Shown piece after piece: positions 31,135-39,712 of a stretch of 63,273 bases of DNA. Every line of letters begins with the position of its first letter. The stretch's first letter is position 1. The DNA is from Granulicella sp. (GTDB taxonomy: Bacteria > Acidobacteriota > Terriglobia > Terriglobales > Acidobacteriaceae). The notes beneath the pieces are model-generated. The model searched no databases and was not told the origin of the DNA. It saw only the letters and a list, made by a program, of their open reading frames with translations. The position numbers were made by a program, and so were the translations under genes. Location of the stretch: contig DAHWNL010000066.1 in assembly GCA_027339965.1 (NCBI GenBank), positions 1 to 63,273 on the forward strand, read 5' to 3'.

Positions 31135-32940
31135 TCAGGCGATCAGGCGCGGGGCGTCCGTCTCCGGATCCGGACGTTGCGCGCTCGGCTTGGGTTGATT
31201 AGCCATATCGCTTCCAGATGGGGACTCCTCCGCGGCTACCCTTCTCGGGAACACAACGCGGAAGATCGTCCCCTGCGGTGGAAGGCTGCGAGTGCGGTAC
31301 CGGATGGAGCCTCCGTGCTCTTCGATGAAGCCGCGGGTCACCCATAGCCCAAGGCCGGTACCAGTCGAACGCTTGGTGGTGAAGAACGGAGTGAAGATGC
31401 GCTGGCGAGCAGAAACAGGAATGCCCGTGCCTCCGTCAGCGATCAGCACGGAGACCTTCCCCTGGCTGCGAAGATGCCGCCCGCGGATGTGGATGCGGCC
31501 AGACTGGAGCGCAGCGCTGGAAGGGAAGGCTTCGATGGCATTGACGATGAGATTGGAGAACACCTGGCGGATCTCTCCGCGAAGACCATGAATTTGCAGG
31601 CGTGGCTCCAGATCCACGGTACAGACGATCTTCCGGGACTCCATCTTGCGGGCGAAGAGTTCAACAACACTCAGCAGGAGTTCATTCAGGTCAATCGCAA
31701 TGGGCTGGATCGTTTCGCGGTAGAAACCCAACGTCTGTTGAGCGATCTGGGCGACTCGGGCGATCTCGGCGTCGGCGGCCTCCAACAGGCTCCGGACCGA
31801 GGCAGGCACGCCGGAGCCGGTCCGCGACAGGTAGATCAGATTGGTGACGGCCTCCAGCGGATTGTTGATCTCGTGCGCGACGCTGGCGGCCAGGCGGCCA
31901 GTCGCCGCCAGCCTCTCGCTCTGGCGCAGAGCGGTCTCCTGCGTCTTGCGCTCGGTGATGTCCTGAACCGTACCCATCAACCCGGTCATTCTTGAACTCT
32001 GCGGAGCAAAGCAGGCAGCGCCGCTGGCAGCAACCCAGGTCTGAATACCGTCGGGCGAGTCGATACGAAATTCGGCGCGGTATAGCCCTCCGGACTCCAG
32101 CAAGCCCTGCAAACCCGCTGCGGTGGGGGCTTGGTCGACGATGGAAACCACGTGTTTGCGCAGGGCCGTCCGGCGGATCGGCGTCTGAGACGGGGCGCGC
32201 AGCAGGAACGCGGCGCGCTCATCCAGAACCAGACGGTCCGTGGCGCGGTCCCAGGTCCAGGTGCCGAACTGGGCAGCGTCCAGGACGTGGCGCAGGCGGT
32301 CCGAGGTTTGGCGCTGCAAAGCGCGCGCGGACTCGGCCTTGGAGATCTCTTGTTCAAGTCTCTGCGCCAGAGACACGTTCTCCATGGCGACGCCGGCCTG
32401 CGCGGCGATGGTGGCCAGCAGATCTTCGCTGGCGGCTGGGAAGGCATCCGGTTCATGATGGCCGTAGAGCAGCCAGCCAAGAGTGCTTCCGCGCCGGTCC
32501 TTGACCGGAACGCCGAGGTAGCTGCGAACTCCCGGATGGCCCGAAGGAATCCCCGCGAAAGGCAGATTCTGGCCATACAGAGGATCCCGGGTGATGTCGC
32601 TGGAGCGGACAATCTTCTCGCCCAGCCAGCCGATACGGAAGCTCCCGTTAGACCGGGGATGCAAAAGGCAGCGGAAGATCTCGATATCCGGACCGGTCAC
32701 CTTGTAGAGACGGTAAGGCTGGCTTGCATCTCCGGCCCAGCTCCGGCTCTCCGCCGGAGTGTAGAAAAAGGCTCCGAACCGCGCTCCGCAGAGCAGCAGA
32801 CCGGCGTCAAGCGCAGTTTGGGCGATGGCATCCAGGGAGCACTCCGAGGCGAGCAGTTTGCCCGTCTCGATGAGTAGACGGAGTTGCTCCTCGGTCCGCT
32901 GGCCACCAGGTGGAGACTGTGTGACGTCGAATCCCATCAC
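31135..32940 (-). CDS. GAF/PAS sensor histidine kinase
   Basis: GAF (RSYLGVPV), PAS/PAC (GTVQDITERK), H-box AHEINNPL, N box NLIVNAIEA, G boxes DGGTGI and GTGLGL. Confidence 0.93.
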   Translation of the reverse strand: MMGFDVTQSPPGGQRTEEQLRLLIETGKLLASECSLDAIAQTALDAGLLLCGARFGAFFYTPAESRSWAGDASQPYRLYKVTGPDIEIFRCLLHPRSNGSFRIGWLGEKIVRSSDITRDPLYGQNLPFAGIPSGHPGVRSYLGVPVKDRRGSTLGWLLYGHHEPDAFPAASEDLLATIAAQAGVAMENVSLAQRLEQEISKAESARALQRQTSDRLRHVLDAAQFGTWTWDRATDRLVLDERAAFLLRAPSQTPIRRTALRKHVVSIVDQAPTAAGLQGLLESGGLYRAEFRIDSPDGIQTWVAASGAACFAPQSSRMTGLMGTVQDITERKTQETALRQSERLAATGRLAASVAHEINNPLEAVTNLIYLSRTGSGVPASVRSLLEAADAEIARVAQIAQQTLGFYRETIQPIAIDLNELLLSVVELFARKMESRKIVCTVDLEPRLQIHGLRGEIRQVFSNLIVNAIEAFPSSAALQSGRIHIRGRHLRSQGKVSVLIADGGTGIPVSARQRIFTPFFTTKRSTGTGLGLWVTRGFIEEHGGSIRYRTRSLPPQGTIFRVVFPRRVAAEESPSGSDMANQPKPSAQRPDPETDAPRLIA

Positions 32941-33032: not shown

Positions 33033-33743
33033 CTAATTGCCAAAGTGCCAGTTGACCCCGGCACTCACCTGGATGTTCTTCTGCTGCTTGCTGCCGCCGT
33101 TGGGAAGGTCGGTGACGAAGTAGTGGCTCATCAGGCGCAGCTCGAAGCGATGATAGATGTTGTAGTTGATGCCGCCGCCGAACGCGTAGGTGTAGCCAAA
33201 GGCTGAGCTCGCCAATGTGTTGCCGGAGGGATACTCGCCGTCCGTGGCGTCTGTAAGCCCCACCAGAGCCTCGGCGAAGATGCCGCCACGGCGGCTCCAG
33301 AGGGTGGGCGAGATGTGGCCGAGGTTGAAGGTATATCGTCCGCCGCCCAGAAAGCTTGCCTGGTGGATATCAATCTGAGTGCGCAGGTTGGTAACGGCCA
33401 GGCCGTTCAAGGAGACGACCGGACCGAAACCGTGGAAGGCCGTATAGGCCAGATCCACGGTGGCTCCGCGTAGATAGAAGTAATCTGACGGCGAGGATCC
33501 CACGAACTTGGATCGTTGCTGGGTATAAGTCATGCCCAGATCCATGGGTGCCTGAGCACGGACGAGCGCCGGGGTTACCGCCATCGGCAAGACAAGCAAC
33601 GCAAACGCGGCTGTCCGCAGGCCCATACGGCACCAGGCTCCGCTCAGCCAATCCAATACACAGCGGAAGATGCCGGCCAGTCCGTGACCGGGGAGCATCA
33701 TCCTGGATCGTGGTGTATGGGTCTGGCGCATGCCGAGAGTCAC
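33033..33743 (-). CDS. Small outer-membrane beta-barrel protein (start uncertain)
   Basis: Signal peptide ending VRA-Q; about eight amphipathic strands (FLGGGRYTF, FGGGINYNI, IQVSAGVNWHF); starts 6 nt after the Ig-repeat gene. Confidence 0.78.
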   Translation of the reverse strand: MTLGMRQTHTPRSRMMLPGHGLAGIFRCVLDWLSGAWCRMGLRTAAFALLVLPMAVTPALVRAQAPMDLGMTYTQQRSKFVGSSPSDYFYLRGATVDLAYTAFHGFGPVVSLNGLAVTNLRTQIDIHQASFLGGGRYTFNLGHISPTLWSRRGGIFAEALVGLTDATDGEYPSGNTLASSAFGYTYAFGGGINYNIYHRFELRLMSHYFVTDLPNGGSKQQKNIQVSAGVNWHFGN

Positions 33744-33749
33744 TCCTGA

Positions 33750-36700
33750 TTACTGGACGGTGAGCTTGAGATAGGTGGATCGGACTAGATTGCCGGAAGT
33801 AGCGGTCACGGTGAGGTTGTAAGTCTGCGGGGTCTGGCCGTAGTAACCGCTGGAGGGCGACGAGATGCAACCAGAGAGGCCGGCTGTGATCGCCAGCAGG
33901 AAACAGATGGAACCGAAGATTGAGGTGAATCGGCTTCGGCGCCGGAACCATCCCAAGGGAAGCGCGACCACGGCCAGGGTTGCGGGGAGATAGCCCAGCG
34001 GAGAGTGGGAGCGTGTGGAGGAACGGCCCTTGGCCGGACGCCGCAGATGTGAGGTCTGGAGCAGATTGGCGGCCGTCACCGCAAAGGTCACCGAGGTCGC
34101 GCCTGAGCCTGCGGCGACGGAGGTGGGTGTGAGCGTCCCGGTGACGGTGCTGGGCAACCCGGAGAAGCTCAGCGAGATGGGACCGGGCAGCGTGCTGGTG
34201 ATGATGGGGGTGACAACCAGCGGATAGCTCGTCGTTCCGCCGGCGATGGTCGAGCCGCTGCTCGATCCTCCCGAGGCGACGGTGATGGAGAAGTCCGCTA
34301 CGGTTTGCGCGTAAATGGGTGAAGTAACGCCCGCGTAGGTGGAACTGCCGGAGTAAACGGCAGTGAGGCTGTGCGTGCCCGCATAGACAAAACTTACCGA
34401 GATGGTTGCCGCACCGTTGACCACCGCCCCCGAGCCAATCGGTGTCGTCCCGTCAAAGAAGCTCACCGTACCCGTGGGCGCGGCTCCGGCAACCACCGGC
34501 GTCAGCACCGCGGTCAGAAGAGTGGGGTTGTCCAGAAACACCGGATTGATCGAGCTGGTGAGAGCGATGTTGACGCTGCCGAGCACTGTTTCCACCACGG
34601 TATTGGAGGTCGAGGTCTGGTCGTCACCGGAGTACACCGCAACCAGGTTGTAGATCCCCGGTTGCGGAAAGCTAGTCACCAGCGTCGCCACGCCGCCGTT
34701 GAGGGTGGCCGTGCCGATGGTCGTTCCGTTGCTCTGGAAGGCGATGGTTCCCGTAGCTGTTCCAGAGGCGGCTGAGACGACAGCCGTGAGCATCGTGCTG
34801 CCATTGACGGCGACAGGATTCACCGAGCTGGTGAGCCTTACGGAGGTGGTAAAGCCCACCACCTGGGTCAGGGAGGCGCTGCCGCCCTGGGTGTTCGTGG
34901 TGCTGACGTACACCGCTTGAATGGGATAAGATCCGGCCGCCGGAAAACTGTCGCTGATGCTGGCCACGCCCACCGTGCCCGAGCGATCCGTGACCGTGGC
35001 GCTTCCGATCAGCACCCCCGCACTATAAAACGACACCGTGCCGCCGGGTGGGGTAGGACCCGTGGTCGTGATGGTCAGGGTAAAGATGGTGGATTGATTG
35101 ATGGCCGATGGGTTGACGCTGCTGGTCAGGCTGAACGTGGCAGGTTCCACGACGAAGATGTCGTTGCTGGTCACGGTGGTCGCCACACCGCTGGGAATGT
35201 AGGGAGAGGACAGCGTAGCGCTGGCCGTATACGTGCCGTAGGCGTTCAGTTGCAAACCGGACGTGGCTGGAATTGTGAGCACGCCGTTGTCCGACGCCGG
35301 GATGGTAAAGGTAGCGCCCCCCAGAAAGACGCCGTTGCTGCCGGCGCTGGAGCTAAAGGTGACACTCCCGCTAAAGTCGGTGGCGACACTGCCATTGGAC
35401 TGATAGGCCGTGAGGATCAGCTCCACGGAGTTGCCCTTATCGATGGTCGAGGGCGTGGCGACCAGGGTGAAGTAGGCCACGTTGGAGAGGCCGATGCCGA
35501 AGAGCGAGGCGCTGCCCGTGGTACCCGTTGCGCTGCCCGAAGCGCTGGTGGTGAGCACAAGGTTGGCTGTGTTCGGCCCCACCACTGTGGGCTGGAAGTC
35601 CAGCGCCACATTGCAGACCTGGCCGATGGCAAAGGTTGCCCCGCTGCCGGTTGGACAGGTGCTGCCGTTGTTGGCCAGAAGGAAGGCGGCCGAGTTGGTG
35701 CCGCTGAAGCTGGGGTCGGGGCTGACGCTGAGGGAACTGGTCGCGTTGCCGGTCTCCTGAACGGCCAGCAGCTCGGGATCATCACTGCTGTCCAGATCGC
35801 CGACAATGGTGGGAGTAGGGAAATCGACCGTCGCAGTGGAGCGCTCGATGGTGATCAGGCCAAGGTCGGTGTCGCTGAGGATCAGGTCTCCGTTGCCCTG
35901 AATCAGGATGCCCGCGGGAGCCTCCAAGGTGTACGGCGTCTGAGTATTGGTGGAAGTGCTGGTGTAAGCGTTGAGCACAAACTGGTCGCCGCTCACGGTG
36001 GACTCTACGATGCGGCTGTTGCCCGTATCGGCAATGTAGACCGTGCCCGCTGCATCCACGGCTACGCCTGTGGGGGCTTTCAGGGGCAGAGAGGTCAGGC
36101 TCAGAACAGTGGTCGCAAGACTGGTGATGGGGAACTGGACCACGCGGCTGTTGCCCGTGTCCGCCACGTACAGGTTGTTGTTCGCGTCGATGGCCAGGCC
36201 GGTTGGTCCGGAGAGACTGGCGCCAGACCCCGTGAGCTTGAGCGCCATAGCCAGATTCCCTCCCAACACGTCCTGATAGATGGTGTTGGTCTTGCTATCG
36301 GCGATATAAAGGTCGCCGGAGTTATCAATGGCCAGGCCGGCGGGCTGGGTAAGGGTAATGCCGTCAGGAAGCGTGAGAGCGGTAGGAGTGGAGCTGCCGT
36401 AGAGGATCTCATAGACAGAGGTTCCCGAGGAAACAAACAGGTTGCCGGCTCCATCCATCACCAGCCCTGAACTGGCCGAGAGATTCAGAGGCGCGCCAGA
36501 GGTCACGACCGAGAAGGCTCCCGTGCTGGACTCCTCCAGAATGCGGTTATCCGATACATCCGTGAAGAAGATATCCCCCGCTCCATCCTGTACCGCCGCG
36601 CCGGAGGTGAATGCGTTGGGGGTGAGAGCCGGGGAGCCGCTGACGGTAACCGCCGTGGCTGGCGAGAACACCAGCTGCGGACCCACTCCGACGCCGGAGA

Positions 36701-37124
36701 GATAGATCGTATTCACGATGGCGCCGGCGGTATCGGTGATCAGCAGCGCCCCCAGGCGGAGGCCGATCTGCGTGGGCGTAAAGGCCAGCTTCACCTCACA
36801 GGTGTCCGGGTAGGTGACCGTGATATTGGTACAGTTGGTGGTGAGGACCGAAAAATCTTCCTTGGGTGAGCCGTAGGTCACCGCTGTAACACTCTGGATC
36901 GCAACCCCGCTCGATCCAGGGCTGCCGGTGAAGTCCTGGGTATAGATTCCCGTAGCGCCAACATTGACGCTGCTGAAGTTGATTGCCGTACTCGGTGACA
37001 GCCCCTGCCCCGGGGCGGATGAGATGCACAACCCCAGGAGGAGAAACACAACCCAGGAACGAGCTACCGCGAGCGTGATTCCGTGCCTGCTCAGGAGATT
37101 GCCGCGGAGCGAGACAGTCATCAT
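33750..37124 (-). CDS. Large surface protein: NHL-repeat beta-propeller plus bacterial Ig-like repeats, with C-terminal TM/lipobox region
   Basis: NHL repeats (PxGLAxDxxGxLYIADTGNSRV), Ig-like repeats (LTSSVNP...GTVSF...AVYSG), Thr/Ser-rich; GGAGG before ATG. Confidence 0.88.
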   Translation of the reverse strand: MMTVSLRGNLLSRHGITLAVARSWVVFLLLGLCISSAPGQGLSPSTAINFSSVNVGATGIYTQDFTGSPGSSGVAIQSVTAVTYGSPKEDFSVLTTNCTNITVTYPDTCEVKLAFTPTQIGLRLGALLITDTAGAIVNTIYLSGVGVGPQLVFSPATAVTVSGSPALTPNAFTSGAAVQDGAGDIFFTDVSDNRILEESSTGAFSVVTSGAPLNLSASSGLVMDGAGNLFVSSGTSVYEILYGSSTPTALTLPDGITLTQPAGLAIDNSGDLYIADSKTNTIYQDVLGGNLAMALKLTGSGASLSGPTGLAIDANNNLYVADTGNSRVVQFPITSLATTVLSLTSLPLKAPTGVAVDAAGTVYIADTGNSRIVESTVSGDQFVLNAYTSTSTNTQTPYTLEAPAGILIQGNGDLILSDTDLGLITIERSTATVDFPTPTIVGDLDSSDDPELLAVQETGNATSSLSVSPDPSFSGTNSAAFLLANNGSTCPTGSGATFAIGQVCNVALDFQPTVVGPNTANLVLTTSASGSATGTTGSASLFGIGLSNVAYFTLVATPSTIDKGNSVELILTAYQSNGSVATDFSGSVTFSSSAGSNGVFLGGATFTIPASDNGVLTIPATSGLQLNAYGTYTASATLSSPYIPSGVATTVTSNDIFVVEPATFSLTSSVNPSAINQSTIFTLTITTTGPTPPGGTVSFYSAGVLIGSATVTDRSGTVGVASISDSFPAAGSYPIQAVYVSTTNTQGGSASLTQVVGFTTSVRLTSSVNPVAVNGSTMLTAVVSAASGTATGTIAFQSNGTTIGTATLNGGVATLVTSFPQPGIYNLVAVYSGDDQTSTSNTVVETVLGSVNIALTSSINPVFLDNPTLLTAVLTPVVAGAAPTGTVSFFDGTTPIGSGAVVNGAATISVSFVYAGTHSLTAVYSGSSTYAGVTSPIYAQTVADFSITVASGGSSSGSTIAGGTTSYPLVVTPIITSTLPGPISLSFSGLPSTVTGTLTPTSVAAGSGATSVTFAVTAANLLQTSHLRRPAKGRSSTRSHSPLGYLPATLAVVALPLGWFRRRSRFTSIFGSICFLLAITAGLSGCISSPSSGYYGQTPQTYNLTVTATSGNLVRSTYLKLTVQ

Positions 37125-37795
37125 TCCTCCAACAAGGGCCGGTAATTCACAGGACAAGCTTGGTCCCCGAGGTCGATCTGCTTTGGCCGCCCTGACGAAA
37201 GGGGCGATGGCAAACCTTGGCCCCGCTCGGCGGAGGATTCCCCGCCAGGAATCCCGTCAGCAGTTCAGTCCATCGATCCGTTTTCAGATGAAAACAGACA
37301 CATAAAACGAGTAGTGACGCGCCAAGAATACCATCTCTCCCGTTGAATTCACTAAATAATTCAAATCATCTCTGGGTGCTTAAAAGAGGATTCTTACGAA
37401 AGGTCCAAAACGTAGCACCGCAATCACCTTGCATGAGAAAGCTCTGGACGGGAAAGAACCAAAGCGGATACGTCCCGGGAGCCGGCGGCGCAGTTGGGAG
37501 AAGAGAAGAACTGCCGGCGGGGCAGGCTCGGTGGGATCGTTCAGCTAGCCTCCCCTTCTCCGCCCGCACCGTCTCGGGGGGTGGCGTAGAAGGGCACCCC
37601 GGCTGGAGTGGTTTTGGCCTGGGGAGGTGCATTGCAGGCCGTCAGGCGGCTGTGAGACCAAAGCGCCTCAAGCGCCGGACTGGATCGGCTCTGCGGCTGT
37701 GGCCGATCCAGCCCCGGCTGACGTCGGGAGCATCTTCGCGGGGGAAGAAGCCGCCGGGCTCTTCAAGCCGGAGTCGCGCCCACAAGAGGTAGTCT

Positions 37796-39712
37796 TTACT
37801 GGCCGGAGACCGGGGCGATGATGGCGTCGAGACGGTCTGGCGCGTTGTCGACGCGTTCCAGTTGCGGATAGCGTTCGCCGCCGTGGTAGTTGATGGAGAT
37901 CACCTTGAAGACACCGGTGTTTTCAACGATCAGGTTGATGGCCGGACCATTGCCCTTGGCATTGTCGATGGCGGCGCGGAGCAGGCCAGGGGTGAAGGCT
38001 CGATCGTTTACGGCGATGATCTGGAAGCCGGGAGCGAGACCTGCGTGGTACCCGACGCCGCCGACGATGACGTCGCCCACCGTGCCGTTGGCGCTCACCG
38101 TGAAGCCGAGCGAGTAGGTTGCGTCCAGGCCATCGCTCTCATTCAGTTGCGACCAGTAGTTGGGCTTGTCGGTGTAGACCAACTGGTAGCCGGAGAGGGC
38201 GTCGATGCCCGCCATCTCCGGCGCATGAAGCTGGTTGGAGTCCAGCCGGGTGCGCAGGAAGGTTGCCCAGTCGTTGGGCACAACGGCGTTCAGACCGCTG
38301 ACGATGTCCGCAAAGGTATACGGCACAACTTCAGGCGGGGTGTTACCGCCCAGACCCTCAAAGGCCGCCAGAAAGTTGTTCAGGCTTTTTTTGCCTTTGG
38401 TCTTGGCGCGGATGGTTTCGTCAACCTCCAGCCAAAGCAGGTCGCCTTCATTGTAGTAGTCCACGTTGCGGCGCCAGTTGTCATAGGCGCCTCCAGCGTT
38501 GTAGAGGATCTGCGCGGCAGTCGCGGTATCCTGCAAATCGCGCCAGGTTCGCCCCGGGCGGGCATCGTCCAGGTCGGCTGCAATCGTGGCGAGCCGGTCG
38601 CGGAAGACCTCCGGACTCCAGATGCCGCAACGGGCGGCGAGAACATCACCCAGGTAGTTGGTCAGTCCTTCATAGACCCATAGGAGGTCCCCTTTCATCG
38701 GTTCCTGGTAGTTGTCGGTGGCCAGACCGGCGGGCCGGCGATACTTTCCGTTCCAGGAGTGAGTAAACTCGTGCGGCAGCAGATCCCCCGCCTCAGCGAA
38801 CATACCCTCATCGATGAAGGTCTTCTCCGGGACGCGGTCGTCGGAGGATTGATGATGCTCGAGGCCGAAGTGCGCAACCTGATCTGAAAGCGTCACCAGG
38901 AAGTGATAAGAGTTGTAATGGCGGGAGTTGTACAGAACTCCCGTCTCGCGCACCAGCTTGGAAAACTGGTCGATGTGTTGCTGAGAGAGAGCCAGATCCT
39001 CTGGACCATCACCGGCCAGGTCAAGGTAGTGCCGGGGGGTAACGTCCGGGGCTAGATCGATCTCCCGGAAGTAGCGGCCTGAGAGGACGGGCGAGTCGAT
39101 GAGCTGATACAAGGAGACCGTCTTGAAGACCACATAGGAGGAGCCTTTCGTAGCGTCTCCGGTGGGCTCCAGCGCCGTTCCGAAGCGCCAGCCCGGGGGG
39201 AGGGTGATGGACGGCGACACCAGGATGTCATCCACCTTGGTGTGGGCGATGTCTCCGTTGAGCGGATAGACCAGAACGGTGTTCCAGCTCAATAAAGCGA
39301 GATTGGCGCTGGTAGAGCCGCCCTCCGTGAAGTTGCCGGCTCCGGTTGCCAGGAAGTCCATCTTGACATCGAGCTGGGAGACTCCAGCCGGAACCGTGAT
39401 GCGATAACTGTACATATCCACCGGATCCCGCTCCCACTTCACGCTCTGGCCGCCCGGGGTAGTAATGGAGAATCCGGCCTGGTTGATGAGGGGACCCGTA
39501 GGGCCGTGCTCGCCGGGAATCCACTCCGGATAGACAAGGGTCATCGGGATGGGTTGAGAGCTGGAAGCAACTGGAATGGTCTCCGTGGCGTGCAGGATCT
39601 TTCGGGGGGCATCCGTGAGATCAACCGCGAGGGTGATGGGGCTGGACTGCGCAGCGGCGGCCATCGCGGAGGCGCTCAGTATGGCAAGGCAGATGCGGCG
39701 AAGGATCGACAT
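37796..39712 (-). CDS. M61 family metallopeptidase with C-terminal PDZ domain
   Basis: PEWIPGEH, GLEH, HEFTHSWNGK zinc motif, LWVYEGLT; PDZ-like C-terminus. Confidence 0.93.
   Translation of the reverse strand: MSILRRICLAILSASAMAAAAQSSPITLAVDLTDAPRKILHATETIPVASSSQPIPMTLVYPEWIPGEHGPTGPLINQAGFSITTPGGQSVKWERDPVDMYSYRITVPAGVSQLDVKMDFLATGAGNFTEGGSTSANLALLSWNTVLVYPLNGDIAHTKVDDILVSPSITLPPGWRFGTALEPTGDATKGSSYVVFKTVSLYQLIDSPVLSGRYFREIDLAPDVTPRHYLDLAGDGPEDLALSQQHIDQFSKLVRETGVLYNSRHYNSYHFLVTLSDQVAHFGLEHHQSSDDRVPEKTFIDEGMFAEAGDLLPHEFTHSWNGKYRRPAGLATDNYQEPMKGDLLWVYEGLTNYLGDVLAARCGIWSPEVFRDRLATIAADLDDARPGRTWRDLQDTATAAQILYNAGGAYDNWRRNVDYYNEGDLLWLEVDETIRAKTKGKKSLNNFLAAFEGLGGNTPPEVVPYTFADIVSGLNAVVPNDWATFLRTRLDSNQLHAPEMAGIDALSGYQLVYTDKPNYWSQLNESDGLDATYSLGFTVSANGTVGDVIVGGVGYHAGLAPGFQIIAVNDRAFTPGLLRAAIDNAKGNGPAINLIVENTGVFKVISINYHGGERYPQLERVDNAPDRLDAIIAPVSGQ

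Follow-up and report, generated by a model that had tools for sequence, protein, structure and literature searches.

In the bacterial lipoproteins processed by Lgt, LspA and Lnt, a signal of 16–26 residues is followed by a tether, and the lipobox is given as [LV][ASTVI][GAS]C (PMC8689077). In Myxococcus, traA is followed by the overlapping partner gene traB, whose product has an OmpA domain (PMC3325183), and TraB has been likened to a barrel-plus-OmpA architecture (PMC11980579). In the Mfa fimbriae of Porphyromonas gingivalis, a processed strand has been proposed to complete a beta-sandwich by donor-strand complementation (PMC4789730; all of these papers are cited from excerpts of their text). 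Here we report a computational analysis of a large exported protein encoded on the − strand of the window, i.e., the whole 63,273-nucleotide stretch of Granulicella sp. DNA, whose last immunoglobulin-like (Ig) domain is split by a two-helix hairpin with a lipobox Cys, and whose gene is followed by that of a small outer-membrane barrel. This C-terminal tail falls within an NCBIfam family listed as putatively anchoring, and the copy studied here is of a barrel-linked minority subtype. Overall, we somewhat favor the explanation that the tail acts as an "inverted lipoprotein" anchor.

The first-pass annotation had read a series of Ig strands, a linker, a helix, RRRSR, a second helix, LSG-C and a tail at the end of this protein. 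All of these elements are present in the last 183 residues of the − strand open reading frame, the Cys codon lies exactly at 33867–33869, and the tail comprises 39 residues with the Cys counted. Residues are numbered from the TTG that opens the longest open reading frame of the gene (33750–37157, − strand). The features of the C-terminal region and the adjoining gene are as follows.

34071–34295, − strand: strands A–E of the split terminal Ig domain, forming its N-terminal part, residues 955–1029, starting with D955 at 34295 (AlphaFold2 pLDDT 94–98; unsplit copies; fold search)
33999–34070, − strand: basic, Pro-rich flexible linker, candidate place of a second cut (low pLDDT; weak motif enrichment)
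33945–33998, − strand: membrane helix 1, putative stop-transfer segment (tail comparison; AlphaFold2)
33930–33944, − strand: RRRSR basic cluster, presumably cytoplasmic, putative n-region of the internal signal (tail comparison)
33870–33929, − strand: membrane helix 2 ending in the LSG lipobox, internal lipoprotein-type signal (tail comparison)
33867–33869, − strand: lipobox Cys1097 (sole invariant column of the 96-row alignment; 183/183 tails, a partly circular count)
33840–33848, − strand: GYY, a Gly-aromatic tether motif characteristic of barrel-linked tails (tail comparison)
33753–33821, − strand: terminal strands F and G completing the Ig domain (AlphaFold2 model; unsplit copies; fold search)
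33033–33731, − strand: stand-alone 8-stranded outer-membrane beta-barrel of the OMP_b-brl type, tail-linked subfamily (homologs; predicted fold; adjacency counts)

An AlphaFold2 model of the C-terminal region, built on a diverse alignment of 96 rows, placed strands at 3–8, 15–18, 23–33, 42–47, 53–58, 69–77, 159–169 and 172–182 (model numbering), with pLDDT values of 94–98 over the first 80 residues, 93–98 over the last blocks and 53–84 over the insert. In this predicted model, the N-terminal half and the tail together form a seven-stranded Ig-like sandwich resembling the sialidase linker domain. A fold search aligned about 95–100 model residues spanning 2–183, and thus both parts, to single Ig domains, including Vpr (8jmw 594–700, Z 10.9, rmsd 2.6, 100 aligned) and the sialidase linker (1eut 404–502, Z 10.6, rmsd 2.7, 95 aligned). 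Natural copies gave independent evidence. The profile of the N-terminal half had 220 matches, 211 of which were followed by a tail match and 9 of which had none. The 211 pairs comprised 13 internal, unsplit domains with a gap of 0–3 residues (one of them, L030, supplied by genome G150), 194 C-terminal, split domains with a gap of 45–110 residues, and 4 further matches that skipped to a later domain. The hairpin has thus been inserted into the E–F loop of a repeat that is otherwise an ordinary Ig domain. In the predicted structure, the tail folds back onto the last Ig domain and supplies its strands F and G. Strand F belongs to the core of the Ig fold, and the model, the fold search and the unsplit copies all bear out the earlier claim that the upstream half is incomplete without the tail.

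The hairpin and its Cys are widely conserved. Among 101 homologs and the query, the Cys was kept in 100/102. In a first set of 102 tails, helix 1 and the basic cluster were kept in all; the cluster held 2–10 basic residues in 102/102 and no acidic residue in 94/102, and G, A or S occupied the position before the Cys in 102/102. In the larger set of distinct, diverse tails, the Cys was found in 183/183, a count that is partly circular because the tails were collected with a Cys-rewarding model, and the G/A/S rule had itself served as a filter for this set. A strict lipobox was present in only 88/183 and a relaxed one in 166/183, leaving 17/183 that fail even the relaxed form. In the 96-row alignment, with a mean column identity of 19%, the Cys was the only invariant column, and conservation of the lipobox Cys, on which the first reading of the locus depended, was thereby upheld. 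The distance from the first basic residue to the Cys was 17–34 residues (median 25, 183 tails), similar to an ordinary lipoprotein signal of 16–26 residues with its tether. LSG-C fits the published lipobox and is preceded by a basic region and a hydrophobic helix, but the signal is not at the precursor N-terminus, as its Cys is residue 1097 of 1135; the N-terminal signal of the protein contains no lipobox. When all 3542 open frames with 250 or more residues in the genome were scanned over their last 90 residues for a basic-hydrophobic-lipobox arrangement, 6 passed, and since all 6 are among the 7 members of the family described below, the C-terminal signal is not a chance occurrence. Asp directly follows the Cys in only 1/183 tails; the +2 retention rule of lipoproteins is an enterobacterial one.

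Degraded copies were also seen. Two orthologs (L209:4775–5826 and protein P0081) have a frameshift in helix 2, upstream of the Cys, and are either sequencing errors or broken copies. In the same genome, C12:60256–60603 (+ strand) is an isolated remnant of the tail (lipobox and two strands), probably from a truncated gene, and overlaps an apparent transposase fragment.

The system had been put forward as undescribed, which does not hold: the last 100 residues pass the curated NCBIfam model NF058595.1 invert_tail, "lipo-invert putative C-terminal anchoring domain", with 47.4 bits against a cut-off of 37, matching profile positions 14–113 of 113 and ending at the last residue of this exported protein. 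Seven proteins of this genome pass the model, whose cut-off was exceeded in 29/301 genomes of the phylum and in all 23 other genomes of the same family. With our own profile, strong tail matches were found in 17/17, 16/16, 16/16 and 1/1 genomes of families f1, f2, f92 and f3, respectively, and other families of the class had weaker matches (taken as scored) or none. Five near-complete relatives had 12–25 tail-model matches each, and tail carriers include open frames of up to 4000–7400 residues. Unpublished genomes enter these tallies (G150 and G024 the 301-genome count; G466, G486 and G479 the family counts), and no conclusion depends on them. Our literature search, which covered mainly the text of non-subscription papers, retrieved no paper on this tail or layout. 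The term "lipo-invert" was in no paper of the searched literature, though tables, or the full comment that NCBI attaches to the family, may mention it, and the main text of the myxosortase preprint (10.1101/2023.06.07.544157), as far as excerpted, does not mention Acidobacteria, lipoprotein or invert.

Genes for two Lgt-family proteins, LspA, Lnt, LolA and two secretins occur in the genome, and a mechanism can be proposed. The N-terminal signal would take the protein through Sec until helix 1 halts transfer, leaving RRRSR in the cytoplasm, and helix 2 would return the 39-residue tail outward like an ordinary lipoprotein signal. Cys1097 would then be lipidated by the housekeeping Lgt, and LspA would cut before it. 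The resulting lipopeptide would stay locked non-covalently in the beta-sandwich, giving a C-terminal lipid anchor with the propeller head pointing away from the membrane. This processing with the lipopeptide held in the fold has slightly better than an even chance. Because the hairpin alone would anchor the protein in the inner membrane, the retention of the lipobox suggests a further step. A second cut before or in helix 1 may free the protein for delivery to the outer membrane or surface, a weaker part of the scheme to which we give somewhat less than an even chance. Several observations pull the other way. The large fragment would still be held by the hairpin after the LspA cut, and a motif search of the linker gave weak patterns only (15–17/183 versus 3–7 in shuffles). 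Direct coupling analysis was noisy, with 10 of the top 40 pairs linking the two halves against about 6 expected by our own arithmetic, the second-ranked pair, D955–R1126, being one that joins Ig half and tail. No experiment on this system was present in the searched literature.

A rival explanation is a plain inner-membrane anchor, in which the hairpin stays in place, with or without lipidation and LspA cleavage, and the protein is periplasmic or reaches outward without outer-membrane release. In its favor, all tails retain both helix 1 and the basic cluster, and neither a second protease nor a strong cut motif was found in the linker patterns or by next-gene clustering of the tails, in which no recurring protease was seen apart from a large secreted protein family at 8 loci. 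We nevertheless regard this explanation as unlikely, as the lipobox would duplicate the role of the hairpin, open frames of the largest sizes would be hard to fit in the periplasm, and the commonest neighbor is an outer-membrane barrel (28/154 versus 8 for the next family). It is quite improbable that a dedicated sorting enzyme in the manner of MYXO-CTERM, rather than housekeeping Lgt and LspA, modifies and cuts at the Cys. There is precedent in a dedicated intramembrane protease that cuts Cys-bearing tags at protein C-termini (PMC11980579), and the genome has a second, divergent Lgt-family gene (L214, C24:19167–20129, − strand; 65 bits versus 120 for the other copy). However, the tail signal has the ordinary lipoprotein orientation and a lipobox, while MYXO-CTERM, in the same excerpted source, is inverted and without one, and across the class the second Lgt and the tail do not go together: in family f92 the tail occurs in 16/16 genomes and a single Lgt in 15/16, and in family f90 two Lgt genes occur in 11/18 and a tail-model match in 1/18. 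A dedicated second Lgt was rejected on these counts. That the Cys is unlipidated, serving a structural or disulfide role within a plain two-helix anchor, would agree with the many members that carry Cys in the Ig half and with the tails failing the relaxed lipobox. Yet the Ig-half Cys residues are paired (115) or absent (42) in 157/176 domains, so that the lipobox Cys is not one of a disulfide pair, and the present protein lacks Cys in its Ig half and still keeps Cys1097 behind L-S-G. A disulfide role was consequently rejected, and an unlipidated Cys is highly improbable.

The barrel gene most likely begins at ATG 33731, 18 nt after the stop of the large gene, judging from its homologs, which begin there, and the Atlas has the identical 232-residue sequence; the GTG 6 nt downstream that had been taken as the start is thus superseded. 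The predicted protein has eight long strands, and its closest folds were the Legionella porin III, NspA, OmpW and OmpA barrels (Z 16–17), including NspA 1p4t (Z 16.7, rmsd 3.5, 151 aligned) and OmpW 2f1t (Z 15.9, rmsd 3.0, 159 aligned). PF13505 was found in many of its homologs, and the barrel itself had only a weak PF01389 match. It ends after the barrel and has no OmpA peptidoglycan-binding domain of the TraB kind. The lumen of an 8-stranded barrel is probably too small for the export of the large protein, and the suggestion that the barrel serves as export partner is not supported, a role as export pore being very unlikely.

Counted from the tails, the next gene was a barrel for 28/183 (28/154 with a called next gene), the commonest neighbor. 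As 12 of these 28 had been picked through their barrel, they were excluded, leaving 171 tails picked without regard to barrels. Counted from the barrels, a search of 121 family genomes with profile A2 yielded 42 barrels for examination, with one at a contig edge (L106) left out; two unpublished genomes (G321 and G302) enter this tally, and no conclusion depends on them. All 15 stand-alone barrels of at least 95 bits, among them the one studied here, come directly after a tail (15/15), compared with 0/3 OmpA-fused relatives and 0/23 weaker testable barrels. Hence the proposed association stands for one subfamily of barrels but fails for the tails at large: a barrel follows only 16/171 (about 9%) of the unbiased tails and 1/7 tails of this genome, and as a general partner it was rejected.

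The barrel-linked tails share a motif, G[YF][YFLMAG] at most 13 residues after the Cys, which most of them carry, including 12/12 of those picked through their barrel. It occurred in 7/11 barrel-linked tails of the discovery set versus 3/79 others. In 81 held-out tails, with the test stated beforehand, the subfamily barrel accompanied 2/2 motif tails versus 1/79 others, and with any barrel counted, the motif was present in 2/5 barrel tails versus 0/76 without a barrel. Seven held-out tails were misaligned in the motif test; their Cys is visible, and they are included in the 183-tail and broader-barrel counts. In the minority subtype, the co-encoded barrel may be an outer-membrane docking partner rather than an export channel, perhaps one that recognizes the aromatic motif next to the lipid. 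We put a physical partnership at about even. The full picture, in which a lineage of Acidobacteriota anchors giant adhesins and enzymes at the outer membrane by an Lgt/LspA-processed C-terminal lipopeptide, and a Gly-aromatic subtype docks on its own 8-stranded barrel, is offered tentatively and is on balance doubtful. Four tails (L138, L143, L149 and L169) have Tyr/His-rich tethers after the Cys and no adjoining barrel, possibly representing another subtype.

A docking role for the barrel has to be set against simple inheritance, in which it is the neighbor of one lineage of tail genes and has no physical role, an explanation that we consider a serious one, with odds a little short of even. 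Detracting from a physical partnership, 155/183 tails have no adjoining barrel, the barrel profile was seeded with tail-adjacent barrels and its 95-bit mark was set post hoc, and one of the held-out positives is nearly orthologous to a seed locus. In a quick tree, 14/17 barrel-linked tails grouped together with weak support, and a tree-based test had low power, with only 3 independent pairs available (2 the same way, 0 opposite, p = 0.5). Plain synteny is also strong nearby, as the 13/13 closest loci that keep the tail-barrel pair (one with a frameshifted upstream gene) also keep a kinase gene after it (60–83% identical). That kinase, however, was matched at only 1/21 more distant barrel loci, while the pair persists across genera, even where barrel identity falls to about 20%, and alongside upstream repeats of different types, and the prespecified held-out result also speaks for more than inheritance.

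The remaining features of the locus are given below.

33750–37124, − strand: exported NHL-propeller/Ig-repeat protein ending in the invert_tail domain (about 1124 residues from ATG)
37008–37124, − strand: N-terminal Sec-type signal peptide (highest peak in the hydropathy profile; N-termini of homologs; putative cleavage site placed by eye)
35985–36602, − strand: NHL/SGL-like beta-propeller region (best Pfam stretch, residues 186–391; PF01436, PF08450)
34296–34562, − strand: third (last) Big_3_5 Ig domain, stalk (PF16640)
31135–32940, − strand: GAF histidine kinase following the barrel (neighbor comparison)

The probable start codon of the large gene is ATG 37124/37121, with GGAGG a short way upstream and homologs beginning at this point. 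By Pfam, the protein has an NHL propeller and three Big_3_5 domains. The gene order on the − strand is large protein, barrel, GAF histidine kinase, and the closest relatives are labelled Acidobacteria, Acidobacteriaceae or Granulicella. A promoter and terminator scan gave no signal above shuffles. Upstream on the same strand is a secreted M61 glycyl aminopeptidase (37796–39712). Among the other loci, one contig carries two copies of the whole tail-barrel-kinase cluster (L209 and L210), and three close relatives of the tail-linked barrels (L098, L102 and L250) are fused to an OmpA peptidoglycan-binding domain and are not beside tails. The large secreted protein family is the second commonest downstream neighbor (L044, L061, L090, L140, L171, L178, L195 and L200), and some of these loci, at least, hold tandem tail genes.

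If the proposed mechanism is right, the lipoprotein enzymes would act on an internal signal and place a lipid anchor at the C-terminal end of a protein through a non-covalently held strand. This would explain the attachment of many large exoproteins in abundant soil acidobacteria, by anchors that N-terminal lipoprotein predictors miss, and might provide a portable C-terminal display tag. As a test system, the barrel-linked subtype has the advantage of being compact, with two genes. The surprise is limited, as the tail was already catalogued as a putative anchor; added here are the two-way barrel counts and a candidate recognition motif for the barrel-linked variant.

With NF058595, the present tail shares a score over the cut-off, the C-terminal position and multi-copy use. 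That model covers about 113 positions with the upstream Ig half outside, and its one-line description, by which alone it was compared, makes no mention of strand complementation, a barrel-linked subtype or an aromatic motif. Classical Lgt/LspA/Lnt lipoproteins have the same basic region, hydrophobic helix, lipobox Cys and flexible tether (PMC8689077, excerpt), but the signal here is internal and C-terminal, after about 1050 exported residues and another helix, and the lipidated piece would be only 39 residues, holding the rest non-covalently. MYXO-CTERM of Myxococcus, too, occurs in multiple copies as a C-terminal tag of exported proteins; it has an invariant Cys, and its lipidation and cleavage are predicted (PMC11980579, excerpt). 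According to the excerpted text, its Cys motif precedes one helix and a terminal basic cluster, has no lipobox, and stays covalently on the client after cutting by myxosortase, whereas the order here is helix, basic cluster, helix, Cys and two strands. No MYXO-CTERM-type family matched in the NCBIfam comparison of the large protein, and the OmpA domain of TraB, as described in the excerpts, is absent from the tail-linked barrels. In the Mfa fimbriae, as excerpted, the strand passes between subunits and builds a polymer, whereas both parts come from one chain here. A cut chain held together by a strand inserted in a membrane-near domain is also known from juxtamembrane domains of the GAIN, SEA and SEAL type; these are self-cleaving or undergo cleavage with no lipid attached, and their strand sits on a membrane helix, unlike the lipid proposed here. 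The NspA, OmpW and OmpA barrels have the same 8-stranded fold, with a sequence identity of only 9–16% to this distinct acidobacterial subfamily. By analogy, and as far as the excerpted sources go, the tail parallels the MYXO-CTERM/TraAB and donor-strand systems but departs from the defining layout of each.

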